Shown here: piece by piece, positions 6,942 to 61,963 of the stretch | How the letters are laid out: each line of letters opens with the position of its first letter | Numbering within the stretch: the first letter of the stretch is position 1 | From: a virus | Length of the DNA stretch: 64,000 nt | IMG/VR virus record: IMGVR_UViG_3300047562_003246 | Coordinates: 96,001 to 160,000 of that record | Direction: 5' to 3' (one strand) | Notes under the pieces: generated by a model | Told to the model about the DNA's origin: nothing | The model's database searches: none | Seen by the model: the letters and a program-made list of their open reading frames with translations, nothing else | Translations under genes and position numbers: made by a program

Positions 6942-8227
6942 TTTCAAATATCGAACAACTTGATCTTTCAACAGGACTAGAATCTAGAAGAGCTACAGGA
7001 CTTCCTAAAGCTTTTCTGGATCGAGGTACGTACGGTATTCATGTAGGCATGTCGCAGTTACTTTATTCACTTCAACTAAGAAATAAAGAACTAGCAGACT
7101 GTCTGGCTGCTCGTATCACAAGTGATGACAAGTATTATCAGTGGTACCCTATCGATTTGTACTCCGATCAGATGCTGGCTGCGGACAATTGTGCTATTTG
7201 TCCAGACGGGTGTGATGATGCTTTTGGATACTTCCACCCAGCTCCTGTTGATTTGACTGGTTTCACTGTACTGCAATCATCAGTTGTATCTCCTGAATTT
7301 TCTTGGTCAAATGAAGTTCAAATAGTTACACACAAGTCACAAAGATTTTTTCAGTTTGCACTTAATCCTTTTTCGTTTGAAAACGTACCTTTCTCTGTCG
7401 TACGCAAATCCGGTAAAGAAATTAAAGTGCTTAGGCTTTGGGCATATCTAGCTAGGTTCGACGCGGACTATACATCAAAGTATTTGTCGCCACTAACAGG
7501 ACTACCGTCATCCGTACCTGCGGATGTACATATCAAATTGCTTGAATGTAAAAAGATTCCTAGCATATTAAACTTCAAAAAATTACTAGGAGCCATGACA
7601 GGTAGCCCAGTCAGCGAAGGTTACGGACAAGTAGAAGTAGTACTGCAGGCCGGAGAGTTTAGAACATTTACTGTGCTGAATGCCGGTAAAGCGTATCATG
7701 CCGGTAAATTTGTCATTCCAACTGTAAGCGCAGGATCCTACGTCATTCCTGGAGATAATTTATTCGATGGATTCGAGCTTGCAGAGCTATCGCATGAGAC
7801 ACCGTCATTCGAGTCTGATGTGATTATTCCAGGCGAGTACCTGCAAATTCCAGGCGTCGATAAGCTTGTGCTTTCAAATGACAACGTCGAGATAACTTAT
7901 CAAGATAGTAATCCACGTTTTGATCTGGGGCCGGATTCTGATGCTTACTGGGACTTTGTTTACACTAGGAATCCAGCGTTTACAGCCAAAGTTAAAGAGA
8001 TTATCAGCAACAAATACTCTGTCGTACCGTTTGAATTATTTCGAGAACATTACTTGCGATATGGTGCTGTTTATCTTCGCCTTCGCGGAGAGACCCTCGA
8101 ACACACAGCTCAAGCTGTACCTATCTTAAAATACCTACTGCCACCAAATAGACTGCTTTTGCTGACTATCACTGGCGAAGTACCTACGTACTTGAGAGAT
8201 AAGTTACCGTCTTGTTGCTTCCAATAA
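6938..8227 (+). CDS. putative baseplate/tail protein
   Basis: 429 aa, GTGA-coupled directly after baseplate J; context only. Confidence 0.45.
   Translation: MISNIEQLDLSTGLESRRATGLPKAFLDRGTYGIHVGMSQLLYSLQLRNKELADCLAARITSDDKYYQWYPIDLYSDQMLAADNCAICPDGCDDAFGYFHPAPVDLTGFTVLQSSVVSPEFSWSNEVQIVTHKSQRFFQFALNPFSFENVPFSVVRKSGKEIKVLRLWAYLARFDADYTSKYLSPLTGLPSSVPADVHIKLLECKKIPSILNFKKLLGAMTGSPVSEGYGQVEVVLQAGEFRTFTVLNAGKAYHAGKFVIPTVSAGSYVIPGDNLFDGFELAELSHETPSFESDVIIPGEYLQIPGVDKLVLSNDNVEITYQDSNPRFDLGPDSDAYWDFVYTRNPAFTAKVKEIISNKYSVVPFELFREHYLRYGAVYLRLRGETLEHTAQAVPILKYLLPPNRLLLLTITGEVPTYLRDKLPSCCFQ
7728..7741 (+). repeat. dispersed motif GCGCAGGATCCTAC, exact copy
   Basis: In CDS 6938..8227, read as S-A-G-S-Y. 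Confidence 0.9.
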
Positions 8228-8240
8228 TTCGATCGATAAA

Positions 8241-10079: not shown

Positions 10080-10091
10080 CCGGGGTAGATC

Positions 10092-11090: not shown

Positions 11091-12628
11091 TGAGTGGCTT
11101 ACGCTTTGGACCTGGCGCTGCAGATGGTTATCCGTTTTTATCTCGAAGTGACGCTGCTCAGGCTGCTTGCTTAGTTGATATCACAATCACATCTCGATAT
11201 CCGATTAACACCGGGTTTAGGCTCAACGCCATCGATCCGCTGCGGCGCAGGATCCTATTAACTTGCGAAGATCCAGACGTTCGTTTGGAGCTAGAAAACC
11301 CTGAAGTTAAACAACTAGGGGAATTGTTTTATTGGCAGTGGTACTTAGAAGACTACGCAATAGGCGTTGCTGTTGATCCTGGTAAGCCTAGTTTTGCAAA
11401 CGGTAGCCTAATGCTCGTAAGCCGCGTCATTAACTATCTGGGTGACGATGTTAATGAAATTGTTTTTGATACTGTCGACGGCGAAGTATCTTCGAATGAA
11501 AAGCCGTTAGTTTTGCGGCAAGGCTTTAATACTGAAATCAACGTAGATAATGAGCTAGTATCGATTGATGTAGCTCCTGGCCTTGGACAAGGAACAGTCA
11601 GTAACTGTTTTGATAACCAAACTAGAGTTATACGCAAGTTGGCTCAAGCCACCGCAAATACTTCAGGTAACGTTAATCTTCGCGGTGACGAATGCTTCCG
11701 CGTGCAACCTGAACTAATTAAGACAGGTAACGGATATACAGTAAGCCCTGGTCGATTCTACCTGCACGACGACTGCGAGCAATGTTGTAAGTGCGAAGAG
11801 AAAGCAGAAGTATGGCGATTCGCCAAACAAATGCAAGATCGACTTATTCCGCTTGTTGACAAATATCATGAACTTCGCGAAATATATCAAAACAAAGTCA
11901 AAAGTATCCAGGCTGGTAATGACTGTATCACTAGGCCGCTGCTTAATGCCGACTTGGTGCTGCAATCTAACAACGGTTTGTATCTTTACATTACAGTGTG
12001 TAACGGTGGGCTCGAAAGCCTAACCGATGTTGTTATATCTGTATCACCGCTGTACATCACGTCGCATCAATTTCGAAAAAAATATAAAGATGTAGACCCT
12101 GAGTTTTTCGAAGAAAATAAAGGCATCATTGAAATACCAGATGACAGCGTTGAATTCTTTAGTCTGCATGAACAAATCAGATACGCCCGTCATTTACAGA
12201 TGCTTGTGGGTCTTGGTAATTGTAAAGTAGGTCAAACCTATTCCGTAGGTAAAAAAGGGCACTTGAAGTTTCCTGGTGATGTGCTTTGTGTTGTTAGAGA
12301 TTTCGATCCGTTTAATTATGAGATAACAACTAAAGGCAAACAGTTTGAATTTTTTGCTGATGGCGGCATGGAGTTTAATTTTCACTGTATCGAGCCAGGA
12401 GATACACGGTATTTCACTGCACCTGTAGAATTCGCTATTCCTCTTATTGATATTTATAACAATGGAGAGCGATTAACAACAGGCGGAAAAATGACTCCTT
12501 TTGAACACAAAAAAATTGCTTTAATCGTGCATTCTCCGAGTCATCCTGAAATTAGCGTTTCTGTAAAAACTGCTACCGGAAGTTACATTCCGTGTATTCC
12601 CGATCCACTTGAAGAAGATAACGAATGA
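11090..12628 (+). CDS. Cys-rich tail-associated structural protein, paralogue 2
   Basis: N-terminal DGYPF..LVDITI; IRKL..GNVNL segment; CEQCCKC followed by a coiled coil. Confidence 0.5.
   Translation: MSGLRFGPGAADGYPFLSRSDAAQAACLVDITITSRYPINTGFRLNAIDPLRRRILLTCEDPDVRLELENPEVKQLGELFYWQWYLEDYAIGVAVDPGKPSFANGSLMLVSRVINYLGDDVNEIVFDTVDGEVSSNEKPLVLRQGFNTEINVDNELVSIDVAPGLGQGTVSNCFDNQTRVIRKLAQATANTSGNVNLRGDECFRVQPELIKTGNGYTVSPGRFYLHDDCEQCCKCEEKAEVWRFAKQMQDRLIPLVDKYHELREIYQNKVKSIQAGNDCITRPLLNADLVLQSNNGLYLYITVCNGGLESLTDVVISVSPLYITSHQFRKKYKDVDPEFFEENKGIIEIPDDSVEFFSLHEQIRYARHLQMLVGLGNCKVGQTYSVGKKGHLKFPGDVLCVVRDFDPFNYEITTKGKQFEFFADGGMEFNFHCIEPGDTRYFTAPVEFAIPLIDIYNNGERLTTGGKMTPFEHKKIALIVHSPSHPEISVSVKTATGSYIPCIPDPLEEDNE
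11245..11258 (+). repeat. dispersed motif, 13/14 variant GCGCAGGATCCTAT
   Basis: In CDS 11090..12628, read as R-R-I-L. Confidence 0.75.
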
Positions 12629-13479
12629 ATACTGGTATAACAAACGTACGTGGTTGGCAAAATGACCAGGAAAGTCAGATCTATCCTTTGTTGCGGGCTT
12701 ACGACGTACCAAGAGCTTTACTAACGGACTTGTCTATAGCTGCGGAAGACGAGAACATTTTCATCGATACGCTTTACTGTGGCGATGGTCAGGTCTCTTT
12801 AATCTTGAGTGACTCGTCGGGAGTCGCAGCAGCACTGACAGTAGAAAATCCAGTACGAGGCGAGGTATACACGGTTGTCGATACTCGTTGTATGTTCTCT
12901 GTTAGTTTTGGACAAGCTGCTATCGAAGGGACGTATCGTAATAAAGAAAAACTATTTGTTTCACCGCAGTGTATCCATGTAACTGTCAGAAGTAACTTCG
13001 CAGTTTTCAGACAGGGTGGCCTTCCTTTAAATTCCCCGTTAAAGCTGACAGGTTCAAACGATATTTCCGTACGGTTAGGCTTCATGGACGAAGCTCAGAC
13101 AGAGCAAGCGTTATTTTTGTCGCTAAATACACAAGATGCAGGTATAGACGTACACGATAAGTACTTAGGATCCTGCGACCGCAGACCTGTCAGTCAAAAT
13201 TGCGAAGGCAATCAACCTATCAAAACTTTAAGTGGTGTTCCAAGCGATTGCTGCAACACGATATACATCGAGCTTCAGGGTGTATCGATCGCGCCGCTTA
13301 ATAACTACTGCGGTATCGCCATAGAGTCCGAGTTTACGCTGAAAGAGTCATGCCCAGCTCGGACGTTGACTAGCATAGTAGAAAGATCCGAAGAAGATTG
13401 TGAAAAAACAGACGAAGACGAATCAGACGATGTCGAGCAAGACGGCGCACCTGAAGGCGAAGAACCATTAACCAGCTAA
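12625..13479 (+). CDS. Cys-rich tail-associated structural protein, paralogue 3
   Basis: N-terminal WQNDQESQIYPL..LLTDLSI; PIKTLSGV segment. Confidence 0.5.
   Translation: MNTGITNVRGWQNDQESQIYPLLRAYDVPRALLTDLSIAAEDENIFIDTLYCGDGQVSLILSDSSGVAAALTVENPVRGEVYTVVDTRCMFSVSFGQAAIEGTYRNKEKLFVSPQCIHVTVRSNFAVFRQGGLPLNSPLKLTGSNDISVRLGFMDEAQTEQALFLSLNTQDAGIDVHDKYLGSCDRRPVSQNCEGNQPIKTLSGVPSDCCNTIYIELQGVSIAPLNNYCGIAIESEFTLKESCPARTLTSIVERSEEDCEKTDEDESDDVEQDGAPEGEEPLTS
13165..13178 (-). repeat. dispersed motif, 12/14 variant
   Basis: Plus strand TTAGGATCCTGCGA, read as L-G-S-C-D. Confidence 0.65.
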
Positions 13480-15864: not shown

Positions 15865-18401
15865 ATAAGATTGTTTTGTTCGAAGCTAGCTGGGGTGCTG
15901 GCGGTGGAACAACTTGGAGCATCACTGACGGACTGAGCATCAAACTTGAGTTGCAACCGTTGCCGTTTGATCTCGGTGAAAACGGTTCTGGACCTAATGA
16001 AAACGGCGTATTCTGTGTCAAACTGAAAGGTAAATATCCTGTCTTAAATAATTTCGTAGAAAGATCTCTCGATATAGCTTGCCAGTTAGAAGGTCAGTCT
16101 ACGCTTGTTGAAAGTATTGTTAGCGTGCGAGCCTATAACTACGGCTTGCTTGCTATCGTCAATACACCAGCAACCAAAGCAGGATCTGTAAGGTCTGTTC
16201 GAATTGAAAGAATCAATTCTGCTGAATTTAAAATGTATTTTTATTTCAGCGTGTCTACTAGCTCGGAGGATACAGATGGTGATGAAGATCCGCCGATTGA
16301 TCCTCCGACTGATCCGGTCGAATGCTCGACAGTTATTCAACTAGGTAGACAGGATTGCGGTCAGATCGAAGTCTGTGACTTGGTGCAGATTGACTTTGGT
16401 AGTTGTTACCTTGAAGAGCCTCCCGTTAGACGCGAGACGTGTTCTGCTATTTTTCCTGTCGGTCCAATGTCGGCACCACCTCCGCCTCCTTCAGAACCTG
16501 GACCACCTGGACCGCCCGGTGATACTGGCCCTGCGGGTCCTGCTGGTCCTGCTGGTCCCGCTGGTCCTGCCGGTCCTGCTGGTCCTGCTGGTCCACAAGG
16601 CCCTGCCGGTCCTGCTGGTCCCGCTGGCCCTGCCGGTCCACAAGGTCCCGCTGGTCCTACTGGTCCGCAAGGTCCTCCAGGACCTGGAGGCTGTACGCCC
16701 TTTGTCTATGTGTTTGGTCAGGTTAGGCACGTTCAAGAGTGCCCTACTCCGCCTATAACAATTAATGTCTACCCGATTCCAGAATGTAATTGGATCATTG
16801 TTTACACTTATTACGTATGTCCCGGCGGATACGGTGGTGGAGGCTGTTGCGATCTAATCTGTTGTGACGGAATCTACATACCCTATAACACTACGACAGC
16901 CGTATCTTTAGCGACACAGAACGTAGCTAACGATAGTCGGTTTATAAAAGAAACGTATCCGACGATGCATGCGGATAGACCGGGTTCTTTATCAATGCCG
17001 TGGTTCATTGGGTTCAAGCAAAGACCCGATGATCCGTATAACTGCGACCCGTGCGATATCGCTAGTCCTGCATATAATCCTCGATACTGCATCGAATGCA
17101 AAGATCCAAATAATGCTCCGGATTACTGCCGAGAATGTGATCCTTGCTCGGGAGAACCTATAGACGATAGAACCTGCGGACCATGTAATCCAGAGTGGGA
17201 AGGTTATGAAGCGGAAAAGTGTTACCCAGGTAATCCGTTTGGTTATGTTTTCTTACTAACAACTGACTTTGACAATAGAGATACCACAAGTATTCCAATA
17301 GATTACAACGTTCGAATTGCGCAGGATCCTACGATTTATCCAGCTACGCTGACACCTGGGCAGTGCGATGCGATTACTAATCCTGATGATCTTGTCGCAG
17401 AGTGTTGTGATCCTGCCGGGTATTACGTCGATCTTTGCTGTGACACGCAAATTTATTACTCGCCAGAGCGATGTTACGATCCCTGTGCCGACGACCCTAC
17501 TTCTCCAGGATGCCCAGAAGAACCTGATCCTCCAGTGGATCCTTGCTTGGATGTCGGTACTATTTCGTGCACACAAGAAGGCCAAATGCTGACAATATGT
17601 GAATGCCCAGGTGAGTGCATCGGAGAATGCAGCTGGGCATCTGCACAAACTACAGAGTACGGCGAAACTGTGTTTTACTGGGTCAATTCTGATGATCCGT
17701 GTGCACAAGATTGTGATTGTCCTTATCCAGGAACAGCGCCGACAGGGCTCGGCCAGACGGCAACAACTATTTGCGGAGATACACCGCAGCCGTGCGACAT
17801 GGTTTGTGAGTGGGTGACCGAACTTAGTAACAACGAGCCTACATGGTCATTGCCTGTAGATCCGTGTGATCCTAGTTGTCCTTGTCCTGCTCCTCCGAGG
17901 TTACCTTCTTCTTCAGAAGCTGGTCTTGTGTATTACACAGACTGTGGTGGTACTCCAGAGATAGATTGTGTCAACGGTTATTGCCAATACGAAGCCAATG
18001 CTAGTTCGCAGTGGGAGCTTATTTATAGTTCTTGTGGTGCGCTATCTTGTCCGTGTGAAGAGCCGCTAAGTCCACCTAGCGGTCCTGGCGATACTGTTAC
18101 GACTAACTGCGGAACGGTATCCAGTGGTACTTGTTGTGACGGTGAGACACCTAATACGCCGTGCGATCCAAGTGACTCAGATATAGGTGTGATATGTCTC
18201 GACCCAGACACAAGCGAAAACTGTAACTGCACTTATACGTGCGAAAATGGTCAATGGGTAGTTGCGAATGCAGACTGTGGTGGAGGAGGTGGCCCAGGAC
18301 CGCTGTCTGTATACGACGACGTAGATACTTCACAGCCGTCTCCTTTTGTCGAGATGAATAGTCTATTTGAATCCGTGAAAGAAGAAATAAAAAACTTATA
18401 A
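15861..18401 (+). CDS. collagen-repeat, cysteine-rich putative tail fibre/adhesin
   Basis: 846 aa with about 21 uninterrupted Gly-X-Y triplets and repeated C-x-W..W..C..C-x-C-P..G..T-x-CG modules. Confidence 0.65.
16500..16688 (+). repeat. 9-bp tandem repeat encoding collagen (GPA/GPQ/GPP)n
   Basis: GGTCCTGCT/GGTCCCGCT/GGCCCTGCC units, read directly. Confidence 0.95.
17319..17332 (+). repeat. dispersed motif, exact copy
   Basis: In the collagen gene, read as A-Q-D-P-T. Confidence 0.9.
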
Positions 18402-20717: not shown

Positions 20718-21812
20718 CTAATCAACGGCATCGGAACCTAACGAGTCAATCAAAAGCGCCTGGAGGACAGTACTTCCAGGTGCTTTTTTCGTTTGCACCC
20801 TCGATTCTGATTTGTTATTGCTCTTGTCATCTTTTTTGCATGCGCAGGATCCTACAGAATTTTTGCACTTCTTGCAGGACTCCGGTTTCATATCTGCAGC
20901 TGCGGCTTTTTGCAGCTCAACCGGAATTTGATTCGCTTTCTTGGCAATCTCTTTGATGCGACTTGGGCCAAAGAAATTTTCAAGTTCGATGTACTGCAGG
21001 AACTTACCAGGAATGTTCGCAAACTCTGATTGCTTGTAGAACCCGCCTGCAAACGGATAGACCGGTTCGTCGTGCTGAATGATATCGTCCCACGGTGCTC
21101 CGTCAGGGCGAATCTGACAAGCAGCTTTAACGATTTCGGGTAAGCTTTCGTTAATCTCGATAAGATCTTCTTTGTCCAAGACAACTGTTGCAAACTTTTG
21201 TGTCATAAGCATTGTGGCGTTGTCGGTCTCGAAACCATCGAATACCAATCTTCCTCCGACGGCTCGGCTGAATCCTTCGAGATCAGATACGCCGCCGAAG
21301 CCTGCGATCTTGGTAATCCTTGGATCGGTTTCAGACTGTAACGTTGCGGTGATTCTCGTAGCTAGGTCGTGGGCATCGATAGCATCGATAGCCTTTGTCC
21401 CGGCTGCTTTAATTAACCACTGCTGCGCTGCGCGAGCTTCTTTAGCATTGCGAACGGGGTATTTTATGCTAGACGCTGCCGCTTTGTCCATAGCTTGCTT
21501 GTACTGCGAGATACTTGCAGTAAGATCATCTATGATACCGAAGTAACAGGCGCTTTTCATCAACCTATCTTTGACGGTAGGATTGGTACGGTTGTTTTCT
21601 TCCGCGTCCAAAGCGAAAGAAGCAAAACTCAACCAACACGCAGCTTTATTATGAGTTGGATAACGAAGCTGCGGTAATCGCTGCGCAAAGTATTGAGGCG
21701 ACAGCGAAGGGGGTGCCAAAGATTCGGGATCAGCTGTTTTGACGTACTCAGGTAATTCAAAAGCAGCCGCGATTTTGGTTAGGTTAGCTCCCGAAATTTC
21801 AGGCAGGATCAT
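20718..21812 (-). CDS. hypothetical protein (possibly head-associated)
   Basis: 364 aa minus-strand ORF with no competing long plus-strand ORF; C-terminal CKKC..CAC. Confidence 0.6.
   Translation of the reverse strand: MILPEISGANLTKIAAAFELPEYVKTADPESLAPPSLSPQYFAQRLPQLRYPTHNKAACWLSFASFALDAEENNRTNPTVKDRLMKSACYFGIIDDLTASISQYKQAMDKAAASSIKYPVRNAKEARAAQQWLIKAAGTKAIDAIDAHDLATRITATLQSETDPRITKIAGFGGVSDLEGFSRAVGGRLVFDGFETDNATMLMTQKFATVVLDKEDLIEINESLPEIVKAACQIRPDGAPWDDIIQHDEPVYPFAGGFYKQSEFANIPGKFLQYIELENFFGPSRIKEIAKKANQIPVELQKAAAADMKPESCKKCKNSVGSCACKKDDKSNNKSESRVQTKKAPGSTVLQALLIDSLGSDAVD
20752..20789 (+). terminator. rho-independent terminator
   Basis: AAAAGCGCCTGGA / TCCAGGTGCTTTT stem (one G.U pair) followed by a T run; ends the plus-strand block and overlaps the 3' end of the convergent minus-strand ORF. 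Confidence 0.75.
20842..20855 (+). repeat. dispersed motif, exact copy
   Basis: Inside minus-strand CDS 20718..21812, read as V-G-S-C-A. Confidence 0.9.
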
Positions 21813-28098: not shown

Positions 28099-28133
28099 AG
28101 AGCCGCACAAGGTCACCAGTCTTGTGCGGCTCT
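28099..28133. other. perfect 13-bp inverted repeat upstream of the HUH-like gene (terminator or nick-site hairpin)
   Basis: AGAGCCGCACAAG-gtcaccagt-CTTGTGCGGCTCT; no clean U tract on the plus strand. Confidence 0.7.
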
Positions 28134-28188: not shown

Positions 28189-29229
28189 ATGAATGTACCC
28201 GACAGGAAGTCTCGGGTCAAGAGCGTTCTCTCGCGATCCGTCAAAGAATTCGAAGAAATACAAAAGATAACAGGAGCTAAAAACCTACCTAAGTTCGAAC
28301 TGCTGATGCAAAACAAAGCACGAATTGTCCAGCAAACCAAAGCTGTTCTAGAAGAATCTTGGAACAATAGACTAGATGCTATATACCGAGGCGACATAGC
28401 GGACTCCCGCATGTTTCCTATCAAAGAGTTTCACGACAGACTCAACGATGTGGAACGCTGCTGCACAGAGTACACACGTTATGGTCCTGTGTTTGCGTGC
28501 CAGCAAAGTCTCGCATGTCCCATCTGTAACAGCCACGCTGCGTACGCTTTTGCTTCTCAAAGAACAGCGATGCTTTTTGAACAACTTGGAAAAGTAGATT
28601 ACGTCAAAGTTTTCGAAATCGTAATTAACTTTGGCGATGTGTACATGAGTTTTGCTCCAGAACGATTCGACGAACTTAGCCAAGTGCGAACAGACATACG
28701 AGACTTCTTCGCTAAACGCGATAAAGCTTTTCTGCTACAGGGTTCGAAACGAGGCTATCCAAAAACGTATCGACTACTCGATATGTTCATTCACTCTGCA
28801 CCGTCAACAGTAAACACGCAAATGATCTTCCCGCATCTGCATGTTGTCGGCGTACCTGTATCCACAAGAACAACGCTAGATGATTTTGTCGACGCAGTAT
28901 ACGCCGCTTGCAAAAACTGGAATATTCAGGCTGGGGTAAATTTTTCACCTTCAGAAACTTTCTACGCGAAAAAAGCTTCAGGCAAAAAAACAAAAAACAC
29001 CAAAGACTTTTTCAGAAAGATGCACTACTTAGCGAGGTGTATTAAACCAAGTAGTCACAACGGTAATTCGTATCTGAGCACCGTGACAAGCGTACCTAGA
29101 ATCTTGCGGCAGCGAACAAGTAAATCAGGTACCACAGTGAGCGAGCAATACCGAAAAATTAAAGCTGCTGGTAACGCCAAAATAATCGCTAGGTTTGATA
29201 GCCAGGTTTCACAGTTCCGAATAGTGTAG
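28189..29229 (+). CDS. putative HUH endonuclease, rolling-circle Rep-like
   Basis: C..C-x5-CPIC zinc cluster, hydrophobic motif-I-like FEIVINF, HUH motif FPHLHVV (28834-28842), and downstream candidate catalytic Tyr in KMHYLARCIK (29026), in the order seen in Rep_1/IS91-type enzymes. Confidence 0.6.
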   Translation: MNVPDRKSRVKSVLSRSVKEFEEIQKITGAKNLPKFELLMQNKARIVQQTKAVLEESWNNRLDAIYRGDIADSRMFPIKEFHDRLNDVERCCTEYTRYGPVFACQQSLACPICNSHAAYAFASQRTAMLFEQLGKVDYVKVFEIVINFGDVYMSFAPERFDELSQVRTDIRDFFAKRDKAFLLQGSKRGYPKTYRLLDMFIHSAPSTVNTQMIFPHLHVVGVPVSTRTTLDDFVDAVYAACKNWNIQAGVNFSPSETFYAKKASGKKTKNTKDFFRKMHYLARCIKPSSHNGNSYLSTVTSVPRILRQRTSKSGTTVSEQYRKIKAAGNAKIIARFDSQVSQFRIV

Positions 29230-29239
29230 GATCCTGCGC
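29226..29239 (-). repeat. dispersed motif, exact copy
   Basis: Plus strand GTAGGATCCTGCGC; supplies the TAG stop of the HUH-like gene. Confidence 0.9.
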
Positions 29240-29447
29240 AGTCGCTTAGGTAACTCAAAATGCGGCAGTCCTACTACTAATGGAAACAATTCCTCTAGGC
29301 GCGAAAAGTTTTTATAAAACAAATCGCGAATTTTCAAAATTTCATTGGGTTTTTTGGAACTTGTTCAGCAATCCCCATCAGGAGTATCTACCCTTGTCCA
29401 CACAAACCTTCAGACACACGCACTCAAACCCACACATCACTGCAATT

Positions 29448-30020: not shown

Positions 30021-30068
30021 CTCAGTAATCACTTTTTGTTCACTCCACTTAGTCCAGGATCAAACCAA

Positions 30069-31277
30069 ATGTCAACAACAACAAAAAGCAATCACCCACT
30101 CGCAGATCTGTGTCTACCAGTCGAACAACTCTACGCAGAAGACCACATCTACCAACTTGTATCCTCGCAAAAACTAATCCAAGCTATTCCGACTCTAGAA
30201 CACTACATACCGCAAGTGCTATTCATGCACTCGAACCAACCAGAACTAACCAATCTGTACCTGCAGGCAATGCTGCTAAAGCACCAAAACCAAAATCTAG
30301 ATTTAACTCAGCCACTTCAAAAACTTCACTTAACAGCCGAGCAGTTCAGCAAGCTCGATCAGTACATCGCCGTCATTCCTAAATGGGTCTACCCACCACA
30401 AACAAAAGCACTCAAAATGACAACGCCGCCTGATTGTCATCCAGTTGTCGAACCGATTTACCAGTTCGCGCAGCTTCTAGACATGCCTGCCTCGGGTACC
30501 TACGCCCAAGACTACATGGACGATCAGCAATACACGATATTTATGCAAAGTCAAAAACCTGAAACGAGTCAATTCAAAAAACATCTGGTGACCAGGATCT
30601 TCGAAACACTCCACAACCAGTACGCTACAAACAATCCGGTTTACAGCAAAAGATATTTCTTGCGAACAGAAACAGATCTGGCACTGTACTCTTTACAGGG
30701 CTCCTCACGTATTACTGAAACCCAATTAAACACAGTACAAGATTTGCTTTATGCAGAGAACGTACTGACCCGTAAAGAACATCTTATGGACTACCGGCCA
30801 CTGAAGTTCATTCGGTTTTTGCTTGCAAGCAGACGCTATTTCTGCTTTGAGTTTTATAGGGTTTCACTTCATCGTGTCTGGTCGAGTAACAATCCATCTT
30901 TGTTCAGCGAGATTGACTACTCGAAACCAGAGAAAATTACACAGCAGTTATTTCATAACCTCGATAACATGCGTCAAGACTTCGAACTTGAAGTCACTTA
31001 TGATCGTCAGAAATTTCATGAACTTACTACAGGAAAAATCACTGCACAGCAAGCTGCAGAGACAACCCTGTCGGCAGATCTAGATGCTTATCCGGCAAAT
31101 AATCTGACCGTGACTCTGCCGATGTGTACAGCCACAACCAACGCAGTAGCCTTGCTGTTTAGTTTGGCGTCTCAGTTGCCTAAGTACACCATGTACCATT
31201 CGTACTTGGCTAAAGACTTCAAAACCCTTCAGCAAAACCTGGAACAACCCACGATGACCGTAAGCTCCGTTTTGTAG
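30069..31277 (+). CDS. hypothetical protein
   Basis: ORF 30036..31277, ATG at 30069; its TAG stop lies inside a 20-bp palindrome. Confidence 0.65.
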   Translation: MSTTTKSNHPLADLCLPVEQLYAEDHIYQLVSSQKLIQAIPTLEHYIPQVLFMHSNQPELTNLYLQAMLLKHQNQNLDLTQPLQKLHLTAEQFSKLDQYIAVIPKWVYPPQTKALKMTTPPDCHPVVEPIYQFAQLLDMPASGTYAQDYMDDQQYTIFMQSQKPETSQFKKHLVTRIFETLHNQYATNNPVYSKRYFLRTETDLALYSLQGSSRITETQLNTVQDLLYAENVLTRKEHLMDYRPLKFIRFLLASRRYFCFEFYRVSLHRVWSSNNPSLFSEIDYSKPEKITQQLFHNLDNMRQDFELEVTYDRQKFHELTTGKITAQQAAETTLSADLDAYPANNLTVTLPMCTATTNAVALLFSLASQLPKYTMYHSYLAKDFKTLQQNLEQPTMTVSSVL

Positions 31278-31289
31278 GATCCTACAAAA
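31270..31289. repeat. perfect 20-bp palindrome TTTTGTAGGATCCTACAAAA (symmetric form of the dispersed motif)
   Basis: Read directly; core GTAGGATCCTAC at 31274..31285. Confidence 0.9.
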
Positions 31290-32281: not shown

Positions 32282-33227
32282 GTACCTGTATTCTGTAGCG
32301 CAGGATCCTACGACTAAAAGACTACGTGTCAACGCGATTTACTTTCCAGAGATAGGCAATGGCCCTTGTGTACCTTGCGGGGTCGTACTTGTGCTCGACA
32401 AGTCCATGAGTAAGATCTCAAGGGCTGGGTTAGATCCGACTGTTCCGTTTGGTACCGTCAAGCTTTTGCCATTTGAGCAAAAAGAACCAGCAGCTGAAAC
32501 AATCATGCTGACGCTGAATAGTTTCAGTTGCGAAGTTTTCCCAGAAGGTGAAATCAATTTCTTGATGGCGGCATCGGCATACGGACTAATCGTTTCGGCT
32601 CCCGAGGCTCAGCCGGTGGCAGAAGCTAAGCCAGAAACCAAGAAGGGTAAGAAAGCCAAGGAAGAAGAAGTCGTCGAGGAAGAAGAGCTAACCGACGACG
32701 ATGACCTGCAGGAAGAAGAGTCAGAAGAATCCGACGATAGCGAAGATGCTGATGACGATGATGACTCGGATGATGATGACTCGGATGATGATGACTCGGA
32801 TGATGATGACGCAGACGATGATGACTCGGATGATGATGATGATTCAGATGATGATTCAGATGATGACTCGGATGATGACTCGGATGACGATGATGACTCA
32901 GACGATGATGATGAGTACGAAGAAGAGGATGATGACTCGGATGATGACTCAGATGATGATGACTCAGACGATGAAGATTCAGACGATGACGATTCAGATG
33001 ATGATGACGACGATGCTGATGCTGATGATGAGGACGAAGAGATTGTGGAGTTCACCCCAGCAGAACTTAAGAAGATGCTGAAGAAGGTTAAGAACGCCGC
33101 AACAGTTAAGGTCCTCGAAGACATCGCCGAAGAGTTGGGAGAGGAGCTTCCAGCCAACGTCAAGTTGCCGAAGGCAAAGAAGCTTTTGATCGCAGTGATT
33201 GAAGGCGAGTTAAGCGCTGAAGAGTAA
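32217..33227 (+). CDS. protein with a very long Asp-rich tract and a small helical C-terminal domain
   Basis: About 125 mostly D/E/S residues (32661-33042); C-terminus VKVLEDIAEELGEELPANVKLPKAKKLLIAVIE resembles helix-extended-helix/Rho-N-like modules. Confidence 0.65.
   Translation: MPKKGSTKAPKKLDPKSVEPNKYLYSVAQDPTTKRLRVNAIYFPEIGNGPCVPCGVVLVLDKSMSKISRAGLDPTVPFGTVKLLPFEQKEPAAETIMLTLNSFSCEVFPEGEINFLMAASAYGLIVSAPEAQPVAEAKPETKKGKKAKEEEVVEEEELTDDDDLQEEESEESDDSEDADDDDDSDDDDSDDDDSDDDDADDDDSDDDDDSDDDSDDDSDDDSDDDDDSDDDDEYEEEDDDSDDDSDDDDSDDEDSDDDDSDDDDDDADADDEDEEIVEFTPAELKKMLKKVKNAATVKVLEDIAEELGEELPANVKLPKAKKLLIAVIEGELSAEE
32298..32311 (+). repeat. dispersed motif, exact copy
   Basis: In CDS 32217..33227, read as A-Q-D-P-T. 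Confidence 0.9.
32750..33030 (+). repeat. degenerate tandem repeat GATGATGATGACTCG/A (DDDDS)n
   Basis: Read directly. Confidence 0.85.
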
Positions 33228-40046: not shown

Positions 40047-41613
40047 TCTCAAACTAATCGAAGTTAGATCTTTATTTGCGTCATTGATTAGGGATCAAAA
40101 ATTATTTTTGGTAGCTAAGTCTCGACTAGATTCGAACTCATTTGCAGAGAACCAAGAAGGCATCAAGATCATCTGGGAGCAGCTGATTAGTTTGTATTCC
40201 AAGTACAAAAAAATGCCAAAGGTCTCTCAACTGAGGGCAGCTATTATTGCCTTTGTAGACGAAACAGACAATGACGACGAAGACATGCAGGATGAAGTCG
40301 GTGAGATTCTAGATCTAGCTGAGTCCTTCGATCGTGTTGACTTAGCTTCGCAGCGAAATGAAAACCGTAGGATCCTGCGCATCTTTTTGGATATTGCGGT
40401 AGCCCGAGAACTCAGGGAAAACCTTGAGCTGCAGGTCAAGCCGACAAGTTTGATGCGAGACGCGATGAATCGTATCGCGGTTAATAAAAGCGTTGAAACT
40501 GGTGCGTTCAAAAACTGGTTTGGTTCTTTGGAAAGTGCGGTCTCGGAAGCCAAGGTTCGTATCTTTGTGACAGGGCAGGCTCTTGTCGATGAGCTGACCA
40601 ACGGCGGTCCACGAGGCGGCGAGTGTCTGCTACATATGGGAGCGATCAACAGCGGTAAAACAACGCTGGCGGTTGACGTGGCTGTGTCTCGGGCTTTCTA
40701 TGAATACTTCGCAGCGCAGAAAGAAAATCGTAAACCAGGAGTTGTTTCGTTTTATTCTTACGAAGAGTCAAGACAGGTCTTTGCTCAGGTATTAACCCGA
40801 GCATCGAACGTGAGTTTTAACTCCATCGATAAGTACATGGAGACCCAAGATATCTCTGTGCTTAGCTCTTCGAAGAGAAAAGATTACAAGGGTTACGAAA
40901 GAGCTTGGAGGAAGATAGGAGGTAAATCGTTTGATGGAGAAGAAGAACGACTCAAGAAAGCTTTTGAAATCCTAAAGGTCTGTTTCAACTTTGTGGCAAT
41001 GTCATCAGAGGATCCAAGTAACGGTGAATTGTCTGGTGAATACGTCGATGGTTTGGTACAACATTATGAGTCTTATCTAGCTGCGACAAAAGCAAAGCCT
41101 GACTTGATCGTTATAGATCACGCTTCAGCAATGGTCGAGCGGTATATGTTTGAGAACGGTAAAGGTAAAGATGAGCGACGGCACTTATTAAAAACACTGT
41201 CGATGCTGCTTAAAGATAAACTTGCCGCTCCGTATCAGGTTCCTATTTGGTGCTTGCATCAGCTTGGTTCCGAAGAAAATAGACGACCACCTGGAACTGT
41301 ACCAGAACCAGCCAGCGGATCTGAATGCCGCATGATGCACGAATTTTTTAGTTTCGCGCTACAAAGCAGTCGAGTTACTGAGCCAGATAAGATTGGCGTA
41401 GTGGCTCTTGGTAAAAAGCGACGTATGAAAGGTGCTGATCATATTGCTTTTCAAATCGACGGTGAGTTTAGTCGCTGGAAAGATGCAAGATCTACCCACG
41501 CAATCCAAGGCGGTAAAGTAAGAAGCATCGAAGACGCCAAGAGAATTGTTGACTCAGAGAGCGTTAACAGTGGTACAGCCGCGTTTACACCAAGGAGAAG
41601 GATGGTTAAATGA
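40018..41613 (+). CDS. dnaB: DnaB-like replicative helicase
   Basis: GAINSGKTT, FYSYEE, LIVIDH, LHQL, VALGKKR; followed by the primase gene. Confidence 0.8.
   Translation: MAKQLAKSNSLKLIEVRSLFASLIRDQKLFLVAKSRLDSNSFAENQEGIKIIWEQLISLYSKYKKMPKVSQLRAAIIAFVDETDNDDEDMQDEVGEILDLAESFDRVDLASQRNENRRILRIFLDIAVARELRENLELQVKPTSLMRDAMNRIAVNKSVETGAFKNWFGSLESAVSEAKVRIFVTGQALVDELTNGGPRGGECLLHMGAINSGKTTLAVDVAVSRAFYEYFAAQKENRKPGVVSFYSYEESRQVFAQVLTRASNVSFNSIDKYMETQDISVLSSSKRKDYKGYERAWRKIGGKSFDGEEERLKKAFEILKVCFNFVAMSSEDPSNGELSGEYVDGLVQHYESYLAATKAKPDLIVIDHASAMVERYMFENGKGKDERRHLLKTLSMLLKDKLAAPYQVPIWCLHQLGSEENRRPPGTVPEPASGSECRMMHEFFSFALQSSRVTEPDKIGVVALGKKRRMKGADHIAFQIDGEFSRWKDARSTHAIQGGKVRSIEDAKRIVDSESVNSGTAAFTPRRRMVK
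40367..40380 (-). repeat. dispersed motif, exact copy
   Basis: In dnaB, read as R-R-I-L-R. Confidence 0.9.
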
Positions 41614-47618: not shown

Positions 47619-49247
47619 GTGCCTAAGAAAATACTAAGGACCAGACTAATGCAGAAGAAGAAAAAAACCTTGGGTAGTTTGATTGCAGAAAATAATGCAG
47701 AGAAGCCGAAGGTGAAGCGTAAAAGAGGCTTGACAAGACCCGATAGAACTGTTGCAGAAGAGCCGAGAGAAGACTTCGTAGAGCAAGAAGAAGAAACTGA
47801 AGAGGTACCAGCGAGAAAGAAGAAGCGCGCAGGATCCTACGCAAAACCGATCGTAATGGATTTGGATGATATTAATAAAGCCAGCCTGTTGCCCGGCAAG
47901 TCGGATAAAAAACAGCCAGCTGCCTTGAAAAAGATTAAAGACAAGAACACCTATTTCTTGTACTTACAATCAAGCATGACATCTGCGTCTGAAAATTCGA
48001 TTGTGTCTGTTCGAGGTACAGCTTCGCGTGCGCACCTTGTGATGCCACTGCCGCTGCCGCTACAAATAACGATGCAGGTCAACGGTATACCGTATGGAAC
48101 TTTTATTGAAGTTGCCGGTGACAAGGGTTCGCTTAAATCATCGTTTGTGCTCGGGATGGCGAGAATATTCAACGGGTTTGATTACTCGTTACCTGACCAT
48201 ATAGGTTTTGCTGACTATGTTTCCAACGAGTCAAAATATCCCGATGGCCTAGTTAGTGCAATCTGTGGCTACGAGGATGAGCATTTGGCTTTGCGTCCAG
48301 ATAGCCTGTACGCCGTCAAGGCTCATCGCAGCGGATCGATGAACGAATGGCAAAAGATCATTCTTTCTCGACTTAAAGAGTACGAGAAGTTGGCTGACCC
48401 AAAACGCGGCTTGCCCTACTTGATCATTCTTGACAGTATTACTGCAAAATTGTTGGATTCGACAGCAAAAAAGATTGTCAAAGAAGGTATGGCGGATCGA
48501 GCGTTTTCGATTGAAGCAGATTCTATACGCCGGTTCATGGCAACTGTCATGAATAAGATCGAAGATTATCCGATCGTGTTTATGGGAGTTAATCACGTCA
48601 GGCGTGACAAAGAAATTGGTAAGTTTGCGGAAGTCAGGTCAAAACCAGGAGGACGCTACCTGAGTTATCAGGAGATTTTTGACCTAGACATGAAGCAGTT
48701 CAAGAAGCCCTGGAAGATTAACTCGCCAGATAACATTGATTATGCGTTTATTCATATGAACGCAACAAAGCTAACTGTGGAGAAAAGTTCTATCGGGCAG
48801 ACTTTTAATTCCTGCGTACTGTATTACTCGTATACGTACTCAAACTACTGTGAAATGCCAGATGGCTCTATTATCGCATTTAAGAGTAAAGATCCGCACG
48901 TCAAGCTCAGACAGCGAAGTAAATGGGAATGGGGCAGGTCGCTTTGTAATAAGATTGCTACGGCATCAAAAGATATTGTTGGAAAACAAAGAGCGAAACT
49001 CAACGATGTCTGTCGTGTAGACGCGGCTAATGAGCTTGTAGCTACGTGCAAGCAAATATCGAAAGTCGCGATGGATTCAGAGAAGCTAGGACGATTGATT
49101 ATGCAGGATGAGCGAATGTGTGAGAAGATCGCAGATATCTTTGCTGTGCAGCAATATCCGGTTTACGAACCAGGCACAGACTACTGCGGAATAAGAGGTA
49201 TCGAACGGAAAAAGAAAAGTGCTAAGGAGCTAAGCGATAGTGAGTAA
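47619..49247 (+). CDS. recA: RecA/UvsX-like recombinase
   Basis: NGIPYGTFIEVAGDKGSLKSS, LIILDSI, FMGVNH, KPGG; basic N-terminal extension. Confidence 0.85.
   Translation: MPKKILRTRLMQKKKKTLGSLIAENNAEKPKVKRKRGLTRPDRTVAEEPREDFVEQEEETEEVPARKKKRAGSYAKPIVMDLDDINKASLLPGKSDKKQPAALKKIKDKNTYFLYLQSSMTSASENSIVSVRGTASRAHLVMPLPLPLQITMQVNGIPYGTFIEVAGDKGSLKSSFVLGMARIFNGFDYSLPDHIGFADYVSNESKYPDGLVSAICGYEDEHLALRPDSLYAVKAHRSGSMNEWQKIILSRLKEYEKLADPKRGLPYLIILDSITAKLLDSTAKKIVKEGMADRAFSIEADSIRRFMATVMNKIEDYPIVFMGVNHVRRDKEIGKFAEVRSKPGGRYLSYQEIFDLDMKQFKKPWKINSPDNIDYAFIHMNATKLTVEKSSIGQTFNSCVLYYSYTYSNYCEMPDGSIIAFKSKDPHVKLRQRSKWEWGRSLCNKIATASKDIVGKQRAKLNDVCRVDAANELVATCKQISKVAMDSEKLGRLIMQDERMCEKIADIFAVQQYPVYEPGTDYCGIRGIERKKKSAKELSDSE
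47827..47840 (+). repeat. dispersed motif, exact copy
   Basis: In recA, read as R-A-G-S-Y. Confidence 0.9.
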
Positions 49248-49803
49248 CATGGACCCCATGCGATTTCTTGCGAAGAAAAAAGATCTCCGCAGGAAAAACT
49301 CAGCTGGTCTCGACGGCAAGGGTATCGCCGCCAGGATGAACGTCAACTTGGCAATCAAGCACATATTCCAAGGCGCTGAAAGGCCGGAGTTATTGAGAGC
49401 TTGTTGGCGTTATGCAGAGGACGCAGGAAGAGACTATTTGAAGTTTGAGGATATGGACCAGTTCTTAGGCACGTTTATGCGGTTCAAGCTTCTGACAGAG
49501 AATAAAGCCAGCACAGGTATCCTCAACGCAGTCGGACACTATCTGGACGGGTTCCCTAAGAAACTCATTAAGAATTACGAAGACTGGTACAAGGAATGTG
49601 AGGATACGACGCCAGAGGCGATACCCATTATTGTGCTCAAGCTACCTAACCTAAAGTGCCAAATGGGCGTTTTGAGGGAAGGTGCTTTGGGTACTGATAC
49701 TGCGGGTAGCAGTGGTATCGTGTACGTTAGCGAAGAAGCTAGCTATGTGCTGCAGTCGTGCAGGGCGTTTGGAGCAGAGATAGCGGGCTACTTGAATCAG
49801 TAG
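49240..49803 (+). CDS. hypothetical protein
   Basis: 187 aa ORF; its TAG stop is part of a motif copy. Confidence 0.6.
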   Translation: MSNMDPMRFLAKKKDLRRKNSAGLDGKGIAARMNVNLAIKHIFQGAERPELLRACWRYAEDAGRDYLKFEDMDQFLGTFMRFKLLTENKASTGILNAVGHYLDGFPKKLIKNYEDWYKECEDTTPEAIPIIVLKLPNLKCQMGVLREGALGTDTAGSSGIVYVSEEASYVLQSCRAFGAEIAGYLNQ

Positions 49804-49813
49804 GATCCTGCGC
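49800..49813 (-). repeat. dispersed motif, exact copy
   Basis: Supplies the TAG stop of CDS 49240..49803. Confidence 0.9.
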
Positions 49814-52501: not shown

Positions 52502-52934
52502 TACAGAAGCAGGGCTGGTAGTCGCTAGCAAGCCGAAGACAGATCCTCGATTTATCGATCTGGCTAAGAACGGTTTGAAAGTTAAACGAGTAAAGAAAGA
52601 TTTATATCTTGAGTTGTTCAGTAATGCACAGTTTGTAGGTTCTATTAGCGTAGGATCTTACAAAAACGTTGCAGAAGCTAGAGCAGCAGAGTGCTTAGCA
52701 GAACTAATCATCGCTACGATGATGGCGGCTATTCCTATTGATAGCATGCAGGAAGCTTTTGATAACATCAGAAATGGACTACAAGCTGCCAACATCGGTG
52801 TTCCTGTAGGTAACGAGCCCAGGACATTCAATCAGGATATTGATCCGACTTATTCGTTTTCTTACTACGATCAGCAGAAGGATGCCATCATCGCCGGTGA
52901 GGTAAACCTTTTCGCTGAAATTCACAGGGCTTAG
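52461..52934 (+). CDS. hypothetical protein
   Basis: 157 aa ORF. Confidence 0.55.
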   Translation: MTSYLMEQSTTPNNTEAGLVVASKPKTDPRFIDLAKNGLKVKRVKKDLYLELFSNAQFVGSISVGSYKNVAEARAAECLAELIIATMMAAIPIDSMQEAFDNIRNGLQAANIGVPVGNEPRTFNQDIDPTYSFSYYDQQKDAIIAGEVNLFAEIHRA

Positions 52935-57998: not shown

Positions 57999-58026
57999 AT
58001 TTTGTTTACACGTAGGATTGAGTTTC

Positions 58027-59028: not shown

Positions 59029-59045
59029 GTTAGCTTCGATAGATT

Positions 59046-59116: not shown

Positions 59117-59133
59117 CTTAGCATAGGTGACTT

Positions 59134-59925: not shown

Positions 59926-59927
59926 AA

Positions 59928-60071
59928 ATGGAAAAAACTGGCGAAGTTACAAAAGAGACTCCCGTAGGTACTAGCGACGTAGGTGCCGATATCAAGGATC
60001 CGGCTAAACTGGAGCAGGACTTCGATAAGCAAGCTAGTGACTTGGCAAAACAGCAGTTGAAAGAAAAATGA
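59928..60071 (+). CDS. small hypothetical protein (47 aa, absent from the ORF track)
   Basis: MEKTGEVTKETPVG..QQLKEK; its TGA overlaps the portal ATG (ATGA). Confidence 0.5.
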   Translation: MEKTGEVTKETPVGTSDVGADIKDPAKLEQDFDKQASDLAKQQLKEK

Positions 60072-61963
60072 AACACTTTGCGTGTCCAGATGACGTTTAC
60101 AGTGGATTCTCTCGAAGCAATTTTTCAAGGGCAAGAGGTAAGCATCCTTACCCGTTCTTGGATCCAGCAAGCCAGGCTAGTCCTCGGACTTGGCGAGAAA
60201 TCCACGAATGGGGATCACTCTGTATCGAACGCTCCCCTGAATTTGTTGACGCGCATAGAAAGCTTTATTCTTATTTCAACACTAGGCTTAAGTTTGCTTC
60301 ATCTACATCGGACGATCAGCAGCTCTCTAGCGATGAAGAGCGAAATTTGTCCGACATGTTCGAGAAGAAACTTAACTACAGTGCTAACGTACTGCAGCTA
60401 GGAATCAGTGTTGCAGCTTATGGTTCGCAGATAGTGACCATACAGCGAAAATGTCAGCGCAAGTTGGTTTGTCCGCATCCAGAATGTGGTGCGGTGATCG
60501 ACATGCTGACCGGTGCAAGAGAGATGAAGATTGATTTCAGGTATGACTACAATTCCTGTAAATTTCTTTATCGATGTCCTGCCGAAGGTTGCCCTAACAG
60601 ACGAGCCCTTGTCCCTGCGATCGTCAAAGATTGGTATCGCAAAGACATTGATTCGTTGACGATTAAGCAGTGGCCACCTGACGAAATGCTAATCGATTAT
60701 TACCTGTGGACAGACACGGATGACATCTATTGGCGTATACCTGAGTATTACAAGCAGGCGGTTCGCCGGGGACACCTGGAGACGTTAGCCGAAGCTGATC
60801 TAGATGTACTCAAAGCGATTCGCGGCAATAATCTGTTTAGGTTTTACCGCGATCGAGTTTTTCACGCTAAGGAAATGAGTATCGCTGGGTTAGGTTTGCG
60901 AGGAAGAGGATTACCGAGATCGCTTTTGCTTGGACCGCAAATCTACATGCTGCAGGTATTTAGGCATCAAAACCAAATACTTGGTATGGACTACCTTTTA
61001 CCTATGGGCATCTTTTCTCTGGATGATACGCCCAAAGGCGTTGAATATTCTGGTCCACAAAGTTCGCTTAATCTTGGGCAATTTTCTAATGATATTAATC
61101 GTGCTTTGGCGGCGCATCGAGAGGATCCTACGCAGCGGTTTGCGTTTCCCTACGCTCTTCGCTATCAGATTGTCGGCGGCGAAGCTAGTCAGTTGGCTCC
61201 CGTACAGTTAATTGAAAACAGCAAAGCAGACGTATATGAAGGTGCTGGTGTTCCGCTTGAGATGTGGCGAGGATCTCTATCGATTCAAGTGATGCCTGTA
61301 GCTGCGAGGCTTTATGAGGCGTCTCACAAGACGATACCAACTTTGTTCAATCGATTTGCTGGTTTTGTCGCTAAACGAGTGTCGGAAGATTTAGAACGAG
61401 ATCCGTTCGACGCTTATCACGAAGAAAGCACAATTGTTGCGGACATCCAGAAAATGGCTGTTGTTTCGCAAGGTGTGCAGCTTGGTCACACCAGTCGTGG
61501 GTTACTCTACGAAAGTTTCGGTATCGATTCGGATATCGAGCGAGATCGTCGTATCGACGAATTGCTTGCCGACGCAAGAGCGGAACAGAAGTTGCAGAAG
61601 AAGCTGGAAAGTGAGCAACTTACCTTACAAATGCAGGCCATGCCGCAACCAGTGGGCGCGCAGGATCCTACAGCCGCGCAACAAGGCGGACAAGCACCTG
61701 AGTCAGCGATGCCGCCAAACATGGCACCTTCTCAAGGTTTGGCTGTAGCCAACATGAGCATCCAGCAGCTAGGAGCCGAAGCGGAGCGTATAGCTGCTCA
61801 ATTGATTGACCCGTCTTTGCCGCAGGCTCAGGTTAATCAACAGTTGGCGATGGTGAAGTCACAAAGTCCAGAGCTTCATAGCTTGGTTCGTCAAGCAATG
61901 GATAAAATGAGACAACAGGCTGCAGCACAAGGGCAGCATGCCGTGTTATCTGGACAAGTATAG
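60068..61963 (+). CDS. probable portal protein
   Basis: 631 aa; PYPFLD N-terminus, FH..(x)n..GRGLP segment, helical core and Gln/Ala-rich disordered C-terminus as in large-phage portals; contains a Cys4 insertion. Confidence 0.55.
   Translation: MKHFACPDDVYSGFSRSNFSRARGKHPYPFLDPASQASPRTWREIHEWGSLCIERSPEFVDAHRKLYSYFNTRLKFASSTSDDQQLSSDEERNLSDMFEKKLNYSANVLQLGISVAAYGSQIVTIQRKCQRKLVCPHPECGAVIDMLTGAREMKIDFRYDYNSCKFLYRCPAEGCPNRRALVPAIVKDWYRKDIDSLTIKQWPPDEMLIDYYLWTDTDDIYWRIPEYYKQAVRRGHLETLAEADLDVLKAIRGNNLFRFYRDRVFHAKEMSIAGLGLRGRGLPRSLLLGPQIYMLQVFRHQNQILGMDYLLPMGIFSLDDTPKGVEYSGPQSSLNLGQFSNDINRALAAHREDPTQRFAFPYALRYQIVGGEASQLAPVQLIENSKADVYEGAGVPLEMWRGSLSIQVMPVAARLYEASHKTIPTLFNRFAGFVAKRVSEDLERDPFDAYHEESTIVADIQKMAVVSQGVQLGHTSRGLLYESFGIDSDIERDRRIDELLADARAEQKLQKKLESEQLTLQMQAMPQPVGAQDPTAAQQGGQAPESAMPPNMAPSQGLAVANMSIQQLGAEAERIAAQLIDPSLPQAQVNQQLAMVKSQSPELHSLVRQAMDKMRQQAAAQGQHAVLSGQV
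61122..61131 (+). repeat. dispersed motif, partial copy AGGATCCTAC
   Basis: In the portal gene, read as E-D-P-T. Confidence 0.5.
61658..61671 (+). repeat. dispersed motif, exact copy
   Basis: In the portal gene, read as A-Q-D-P-T. Confidence 0.9.

Follow-up and report, generated by a model that had tools for sequence, protein, structure and literature searches.

A dispersed, evenly spaced 14-letter DNA word in a large phage genome and its linkage to the gene for a candidate HUH endonuclease

We analysed a 64,000-nucleotide stretch of viral DNA (the window), which comprises bases 96,001-160,000 of a 185,237-bp, 44.7% G+C phage contig in IMG/VR (record IMGVR_UViG_3300047562_003246) that is ~88% complete. 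The subject is a 14-letter near-palindrome, GCGCAGGATCCTAC, that recurs in the window and throughout the contig, together with a gene at 28189-29229 whose predicted product, a candidate HUH endonuclease, may act on it. Genes on the contig were called as a crude longest-open-reading-frame (ORF) set, by which coding is almost unidirectional (198 of 211 ORF calls on the plus strand). The gene set of the phage includes a PolA-type polymerase, helicases, RNase H, an SbcCD-like nuclease and a UvsX-like recombinase. Among named phages no close relative was found by megablast, and the best match to the large terminase (TerL) is ~25-28% identical. The candidate gene and the nine exact copies of the word in the window are located as follows.

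28189..29229, plus strand: candidate HUH gene, 346 amino acids, with a zinc finger (C-x12-C-x5-C-x2-C), an HUH motif (PHLHVV) and a tyrosine motif (MHYLARCIK), Rep_1-like
7728..7741, plus strand: exact copy in ORF 6938-8227, frame 1
17319..17332, plus strand: exact copy in frame 0 (AQDPT) of the tail-fibre-like ORF 15861-18401, within a 10-amino-acid segment missing from the L063 orthologue
20842..20855, plus strand: exact copy in the minus-strand ORF 20718-21812, within a segment missing from orthologues
29226..29239, minus strand: exact copy whose TAG (29227-29229) is the stop codon of the candidate HUH gene
32298..32311, plus strand: exact copy in frame 0, near the start of the acidic-repeat ORF 32217-33227
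40367..40380, minus strand: exact copy, antisense in the AAA/helicase-like ORF 40018-41613
47827..47840, plus strand: exact copy in the UvsX-like recombinase ORF 47619-49247, frame 1
49800..49813, minus strand: exact copy whose TAG is the stop codon of ORF 49240-49803
61658..61671, plus strand: exact copy in frame 0 of ORF 60068-61963

All nine copies stand at the coordinates and on the strands given in an earlier reading of the window (the original prediction), and across the whole contig the number rises to 30, with 20 on the plus strand and 10 on the minus strand, where ~0.0008 exact copies are expected by chance from base composition. GCGCAGGATCCTAC is the most common 14-mer of the genome, and the reversed word, used as a control, has no copies genome-wide. 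With up to two mismatches allowed, the window gave 13 matches versus 0.25 expected from 100 dinucleotide shuffles. Shuffling of synonymous codons within genes produced a mean of 0.3 copies (maximum 3), compared with 19 copies lying wholly in called genes; a codon-preserving null had been set beforehand as a check by the original prediction, and the enrichment holds under it.

The flanks of the 30 copies are unrelated beyond base +15, which is a purine in 30 of 30 and thus extends the true unit to 15 nt; the form of the word with context for site oligonucleotides is GCGCAGGATCCTACA. All 14-15 positions of the near-palindrome are conserved in 30 of 30 copies, and the asymmetry is strict in every one: GCGC is confined to one end, the C/A mismatch never changes and a purine stands at +15. 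Genome-wide there are only two one-mismatch copies and a handful of more decayed ones. The variants reported earlier for the window are real, and they are given here with the one-mismatch copy that lies outside it and with a degenerate partner of the 29226 copy.

11245..11258, plus strand: 13/14 variant, last C to T
Genome coordinate 79378: 13/14 variant
13165..13178, minus strand: 12/14 variant, differing at its first and last bases
31272..31285: symmetric form GTAGGATCCTAC, where ORF 30036-31277 ends
52648..52661, plus strand: 12/14 variant GCGtAGGATCtTAC
61120..61133, minus strand: 11/14 variant, core only
29262..29274, plus strand: degenerate inverted partner GCGGCAGTCCTAC, which together with the 29226 copy forms a hairpin in single-strand DNA (z = -3.5)

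Outside the copies, partial words occur at chance level (GCGCAGG, 8 observed versus 9.8 expected), and the genome shows neither avoidance nor excess of partial words, BamHI sites or GATC. A lone word cannot form a stable hairpin, its loop being 2-4 nt. The gaps between copies average 6.2 kb and range from 0.7 to 11.9 kb, a spacing more regular than random placement (coefficient of variation 0.49, p=1e-5; largest gap, p=5e-4), and the plus-strand copies taken alone are also regularly spaced (p=0.0035).

An adapter or assembly artefact was ruled out because long ORFs run through the copies, an 11.2-kb contig from JGI 3300043420, possibly of the same sample, is 100% identical and carries both expected copies, and related words are present in independent assemblies; the refutation that the original prediction had foreseen from assembly joins or adapters thus fails. 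The same word was found in 54 IMG/VR viruses, all of them singletons. Among the matches listed, genome contigs gave singletons and one unrelated doublet of 65% GC, with no bacterial contig containing many copies, and metagenome contigs gave singletons only, without homology to this phage.

Between 17 and 19 of the 30 copies lie inside ORFs, and relative to transcription 19 copies are sense and 11 antisense. Eleven of the 15 in-gene copies that share the sense of their gene are in frame 0 and are read as AQDPT; the proteome contains 11 AQDPT peptides, all with identical codons, and the threonine codon always ends in a purine. The identity of these codons, taken with the synonymous shuffle (0.3 versus 19), demonstrates that the conserved unit is DNA and not peptide, as had been argued earlier, and a peptide motif was ruled out on these grounds. 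The occurrence of copies in different frames and orientations (AQDPT, RRIL, AGSY, VGSCA and a stop codon) is likewise borne out, with a strong bias toward frame 0, and of reverse copies toward gene ends, that was absent from the earlier account. With regard to the genes said to carry copies, searches support the tail-fibre-like, UvsX-like recombinase and AAA/helicase-like labels, whereas head and portal found no support.

One reading frame of the reverse copies contains TAG. Of these ten copies, seven or eight are situated at gene borders, three supply a stop codon, and several are either at stops or 7-15 nt ahead of a start. Where orthologues were available, the segments that hold in-gene copies either are missing from the orthologue or cannot be aligned with it. 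The preference for such segments, for stops and for borders indicates that the word has been written into spots that tolerate it. A mobile mini-element was ruled out, since the flanks are unrelated and the 14-nt unit lies within open frames. The reverse orientation is retained alongside the forward one despite being difficult to accommodate in coding DNA, which suggests that both DNA strands matter. Coding constraints have a strong influence on orientation, so the original argument that the presence of both orientations excludes a polar signal is weaker than stated. Taken together, these results establish that purifying selection acts strongly on this DNA-level signal, both at each of its 15 positions and on its spacing.

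Relatives of the phage were found as metagenome contigs through TerL homologues, with only ~6-32 kb of readable sequence for each; a related-locus search with the phage itself found nothing. Five genomes, namely this phage, L197, L063, L064 and L073, provided enough sequence for evaluating linkage between sites and genes. The word is conserved among them, as the same word in L197 and as distinct dialects in the other three.

L197 (TerL 68%, DNA ~68%): three copies within 5.9 kb, one exact GCGCAGGATCCTAC, one with a single mismatch and one carrying a 1-nt insertion (GCGCAGGAATCCTAC)
L063/L199 (TerL 60%): (AAA)GCGCAGATAATCTGCGC, 5 copies and 1 variant
L064/L198 (TerL 45%): GCGCAGGCGCGCCTG, 6 copies and a core-only copy
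L073: GCGCAAGA-N-TCTTGCGC (dialect word GCGCAAGANTCTTGCGC), 3 copies

All dialects are near-palindromes that start with GCGCA(A/G). The copies in relatives are mainly intergenic and clustered in the early-gene region, and ~10 kb more of structural or replication genes in two relatives contains few or no copies. No repeated word was found in ~20 kb of L066/L067 and L068, whose TerL is ~37% identical. A separate feature was observed on the L198 contig (ENA ERZ18242361), where positions 3400-7300, 3' of the HUH orthologue, form a stretch of ~4 kb nearly without called genes. Hairpin repeats of ~35 nt (core CTCAGTGGTTTCATAACTGAG) recur there at intervals of 50-900 nt, some 14-25 in all, with four copies of the GCGCAG-type word scattered among them; the stretch may be an origin/iteron field or an array of small RNAs.

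In five of the five genomes with enough sequence, the orthologous HUH gene has a copy of the word at its stop codon, either overlapping it or lying next to it. The HUH gene of L197, like that of this phage, ends with the TAG of its word copy, and the L063 gene ends with a TAA within its palindrome; in L064 the word begins 2 nt past the stop codon, and in L073 immediately past it. Further copies follow within a few kb downstream of the gene in each case. The linkage thus spans five diverged genomes and four different dialects. The HUH gene is single-copy and syntenic beside the terminase, and in the 10 kb around TerL the gene and a repeated word occur together or not at all, L066, L067 and L068 having neither. 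The family is very rare, with 4 representatives among 1.84 billion sequences. Three candidate products had been named by the original prediction for binding to the word. The one encoded at 28189 stands out, being HUH-like, with a stop codon that lies within a copy here and with linkage to the word in four relatives, whereas the products at 50874 and 56490 have no family match and no link to the word. A perfect 13-bp stem-loop with a T-run after it (28099-28133) stands between the end of ORF 27721-28092 and the HUH gene, 55 nt upstream of the latter, and has the appearance of an ordinary intrinsic terminator outside the motif system.

In an alignment of six members of the HUH family, the PH(L/V)H motif is invariant, a Cys4 cluster is kept, and Y-x4-K is found at the aligned position in five of the six. 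An Atlas feature search of the protein gave scores of 0.96-0.97 to clusters whose named family is Rep_1 (PF01446); in the three best, 17-41% of the members carry it. The Atlas structure search gave TM values of 0.53-0.58 over ~250-266 residues, with Rep_1 on 97-100% of members in three of five rows. Searches of the protein against the phage collection and PDB sequences returned nothing usable, and Foldseek against PDB returned nothing below E 0.001. We assign the 28189-29229 product, with moderate confidence, as a Rep_1-like HUH endonuclease.

The head of the word resembles a motif from a long-known class of phage nicks. The major nicks of T5 have the consensus R/GCGCRGG, and other phages with localized nicks have consensuses of their own, CGACxxxxxCCTA/CTCCGG in the phiKMV-like and WACT/RTGAC in the tf/LUZ24-like group (PMC3517423). 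Such motifs are kept across relatives with little nucleotide identity (PMC3517423, PMC11780129), and a 2025 study still described the function of phage nicks as unknown and named no enzyme (PMC11780129). Bases 1-7 of our word, GCGCAGG, match the T5 consensus, and the L064 dialect begins likewise; a 7-mer identity at either end of the word would arise by chance roughly 1 time in 1000. The purine that precedes the T5 cut (R/) is found before the word in only 12 of 30 copies. Features in the T5 record read A/GCGCAGGG at three major nicks and G/GCGCGGGC at the fourth, and the record notes a polymerase capable of strand displacement from a nick. The first major nick of T5 (AY543070, 9720-9749, minus strand), located in the terminal repeat within the injection-stop region, is directly followed by an 18-bp perfect palindrome, GCAGGGCAATTGCCCTGC; the other three nick sites examined have no such palindrome. 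The T5, phiKMV and tf motifs resemble the present word in being short, conserved and recurrent through a lytic phage genome, genes included, and one T5 site also has GCGCAGG followed by a palindrome. The word described here differs in being longer (14-15 nt) and letter-perfect, in being known from sequence alone, and in having a specific HUH candidate without a counterpart in T5.

We tentatively favour, at somewhat less than an even chance, the explanation that GCGCAGGATCCTAC(R) marks the cognate strand-specific nick sites of the phage's own HUH enzyme, sites that would have spread from an origin-like cluster across the genome. The ancestral state would have been an origin-like module made up of the HUH gene, a word at its stop codon and a few copies just downstream, mostly intergenic; in the L064 phage the origin-like cluster would sit in the 4-kb non-coding stretch described above, which is dense in other hairpin repeats. 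In the present phage the word would have multiplied by point substitutions to 30 evenly spaced copies on both strands, using tolerant spots such as indel-prone protein linkers, stop codons and short spacers. The HUH enzyme would then bind the word and nick one strand at each site, and the resulting 3'-OH ends could prime strand-displacement or recombination-dependent replication by the PolA-type polymerase, the UvsX-like recombinase and the SbcCD-like nuclease, providing many regularly spaced entry points for a large genome. Priming of this kind fits the gene set, helicases and RNase H included. A more specific version, in which a rolling-circle-type HUH Rep was domesticated by a large lytic phage into a genome-wide nicking system, with ~30 evenly spaced, strand-specific sites on both strands that run through essential genes and act as replication/recombination entry points, and with dialects that evolve alongside the enzyme, is doubtful by our estimate.

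The closest enzymatic parallels to this proposal are the Rep initiators. Like Rep_1 proteins (pC194/pUB110-type), phiX174 A, P2 A and SIRV1 ORF119, the candidate has HUH and tyrosine motifs in Rep_1 order and an N-terminal zinc cluster, and it has a cognate-looking site at or in its own gene, with extra copies beside the gene in relatives. The origin of P2 lies within gene A. The candidate differs in matching below Pfam thresholds and in belonging to a 185-kb phage that has PolA, helicase, RNase H and recombination genes of its own, and where Rep initiators have one double-strand origin, thirty sites on both strands are present here. On this reading the system is akin to two known kinds, the phage nick-motif systems and the HUH enzyme-plus-site modules.

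Several observations weigh against the proposed nicking. The HUH assignment draws on motifs, on language-model and structure look-alikes and on an AF2 model of mid confidence (pLDDT 61.5, pTM 0.63), in which a beta-alpha-beta core carries HUH on a strand. Pfam matches are far below the gathering threshold, with Rep_1 at E 0.16 (11.8 bits versus 33.2) and REP_ORF2-G2P at E 0.055, one family member each, and the best PDB fold match (VIA), SIRV1 Rep ORF119 at Z 8.0, is within the range of chance best hits. The HUH proteins of this phage and L197 are 30% identical, against 68% for TerL (window 25255-27192, minus strand), and the persistence of the same word despite this divergence weakens a simple co-evolution argument. 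T5 has no detectable HUH-family homologue or Rep_1, an empty result that is weak evidence, and the seven-base identity may thus be a coincidence or point to a different enzyme. The 30 sites have no more hairpin potential than random windows, and many HUH enzymes read hairpins. Known nick motifs occupy one strand and often one half of the genome, whereas the copies here are split 20:10 and evenly spaced. Repeated direct Rep nick sites would be expected to end rolling-circle rounds prematurely. Finally, the clustered intergenic copies of the relatives also fit a regulatory role.

A regulatory or structural role is the substance of the best-surviving alternative, in which a DNA-organising, silencing or regulatory protein would dock at the dispersed words without cleaving them, along the parS/NBS/SBS-like lines of the original prediction. 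This protein, possibly the zinc-finger part of the HUH protein or another factor, would act in compaction, packaging or the timing of expression. We consider this unlikely. The dispersal and even spacing of a near-palindrome as long as a binding site fit it, as do the intergenic, early-region clusters of the relatives. The sites of ParB/parS, Noc/NBS, SlmA/SBS and MatP/matS are symmetric and degenerate, whereas the present word is asymmetric and is found 30 times exact versus twice with one mismatch, and the sole linked gene has nuclease-type HUH and tyrosine motifs. No match to ParB_N (PF02195) was found in the ~88% complete 185-kb contig, in which TetR/SlmA-like and MatP-like proteins were not searched for. 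Strict asymmetry, letter-perfection and the absence of a ParB_N match together mean that the analogies to chromosome-organising systems made in the original prediction fit poorly. Its broader inference of a selected, DNA-level, site-specific system in place of chance stands, and among the functions it listed nicking is now favoured.

That the sites are nicked by an enzyme other than the HUH protein is a quite unlikely explanation. Here T5-type nick sites would be read by a different nickase recognising GCGCRGG plus context, and the HUH gene would merely lie beside a site cluster such as an origin. The seven-base identity with the consensus of T5, a phage with no detectable member of the HUH family, is in keeping with such an arrangement, as is the chemistry, since tf and T5 nicks are ligatable 3'-OH/5'-P ends and not covalent HUH adducts (PMC3517423). 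DNA polymerase (26% identity over ~230 amino acids) is the only protein common to T5 and this phage at the BLAST level, hence there is no candidate for a shared enzyme, and the linkage of site to HUH stop codon in five diverged genomes with four dialects is not accounted for.

We regard as very unlikely a miniature REP/RAYT-like system, in which selfish or domesticated repeats would be spread by the HUH enzyme as REPINs presumably are by RAYTs. E. coli TnpA-REP requires GTAG and a stem mismatch and cleaves CC|TAC within CTAC (PMC3333891). The reverse word here starts with GTAG, forms an imperfect palindrome whose mismatch is fixed, and has CC/TAC at its other end, and as in a REPtron (REP/BIME plus RAYT) an HUH gene lies beside a dispersed imperfect palindrome with an inverted doublet at its 3' end. 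The extragenic copies of the relatives agree with this picture. RAYT 4er8 (Z 6.2) and an IS200-type transposase (Z ~6) are among the fold matches, with Z values within the chance range. REPtron repeats, however, are 30-40 nt long, extragenic and located on bacterial chromosomes, whereas the word here is 14 nt, exact, evenly spaced and carried by a phage, cannot form a stable hairpin and has 19 of 30 copies in ORFs; insertion of 14 nt would break the frame, yet those copies lie in open frames with unrelated flanks. A REPtron enzyme gene has repeats on both sides, whereas the HUH gene is flanked by copies on its 3' side only (29226 and the degenerate 29262), with just the terminator hairpin at 28099-28133 upstream. 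The protein is Rep_1-like and not IS200/IS605-like, and Y1_Tnp (PF01797) has no match in the genome at E<=1. Even spacing and letter-perfect copies indicate selection at the level of the genome, not transposition.

A self-marking or protective signal for a translocating enzyme, in the style of Chi or DNA uptake, would spare phage DNA from a nuclease of phage or host or direct recombination, but is highly improbable. Letter-perfect, evenly spaced copies with a maximal gap of 11.9 kb recall DUS/USS and Chi, and SbcCD-like and UvsX-like proteins are encoded by the phage. A length of 14-15 nt is long for such signals, no multi-copy bacterial contig was found among the matches listed, and the conserved link to the HUH stop codon is left unexplained. 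A role at the RNA level or in transcription, as promoter, terminator or processing site, is hardly credible: although the L063 palindrome lies between genes with TTT directly after it on the sense strand and several reverse copies are near starts or at stops, 17-19 of 30 copies are deep within ORFs, sense and antisense copies number 19 and 11, and no stable hairpin can form.

Site-specific nicks of T5, phiKMV-like and tf-like phages have long been known, and the dispersed word described here adds a specific linked HUH gene. The conjunction of a T5-like nick head with one rare HUH gene in five genomes poses a direct bench question of one protein and one 15-mer. If nicking by the HUH enzyme were confirmed, it would provide the first enzyme-linked model for phage 'localized nicks', through the common GCGCRGG head, and would mean that a rolling-circle initiator can be reused by a large phage with a full replisome. 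It would also mean that DNA-level selection is able to overwrite protein sequence at ~20 places in a genome and that site systems drift into dialects, as promoter-polymerase pairs do. A sequence-specific HUH nickase with a 14-15-nt site would be a reagent for covalent DNA-protein tagging and nick-based methods.

Further features were observed in the course of the comparisons. A 601-amino-acid gene in the structural region of L064 (13474-15279, minus strand), absent from the syntenic place in the window, has a weak Cas12f1-like/TnpB match, which suggests a putative IS200/IS605-type or TnpB insertion. The PolA-type replicative polymerase is encoded at 42701-45841 of the window, and its counterpart in the L064 relative (L198:19941-20924) is annotated with an N-terminal UDG-like domain. 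ORF 32217-33227, which carries the 32298 copy, contains an extremely acidic tandem coding repeat at 32757-32950 (GATGATGACTCGGATGA, DDDSDD-type, at least 5 units). At 64540-64665 of the genome, ~31.4 kb before the window start, six tandem 21-nt units (GTCAAAGCACTGGTGGTGGCA) form an ordinary coding repeat rich in Gly, Ser and Gln.

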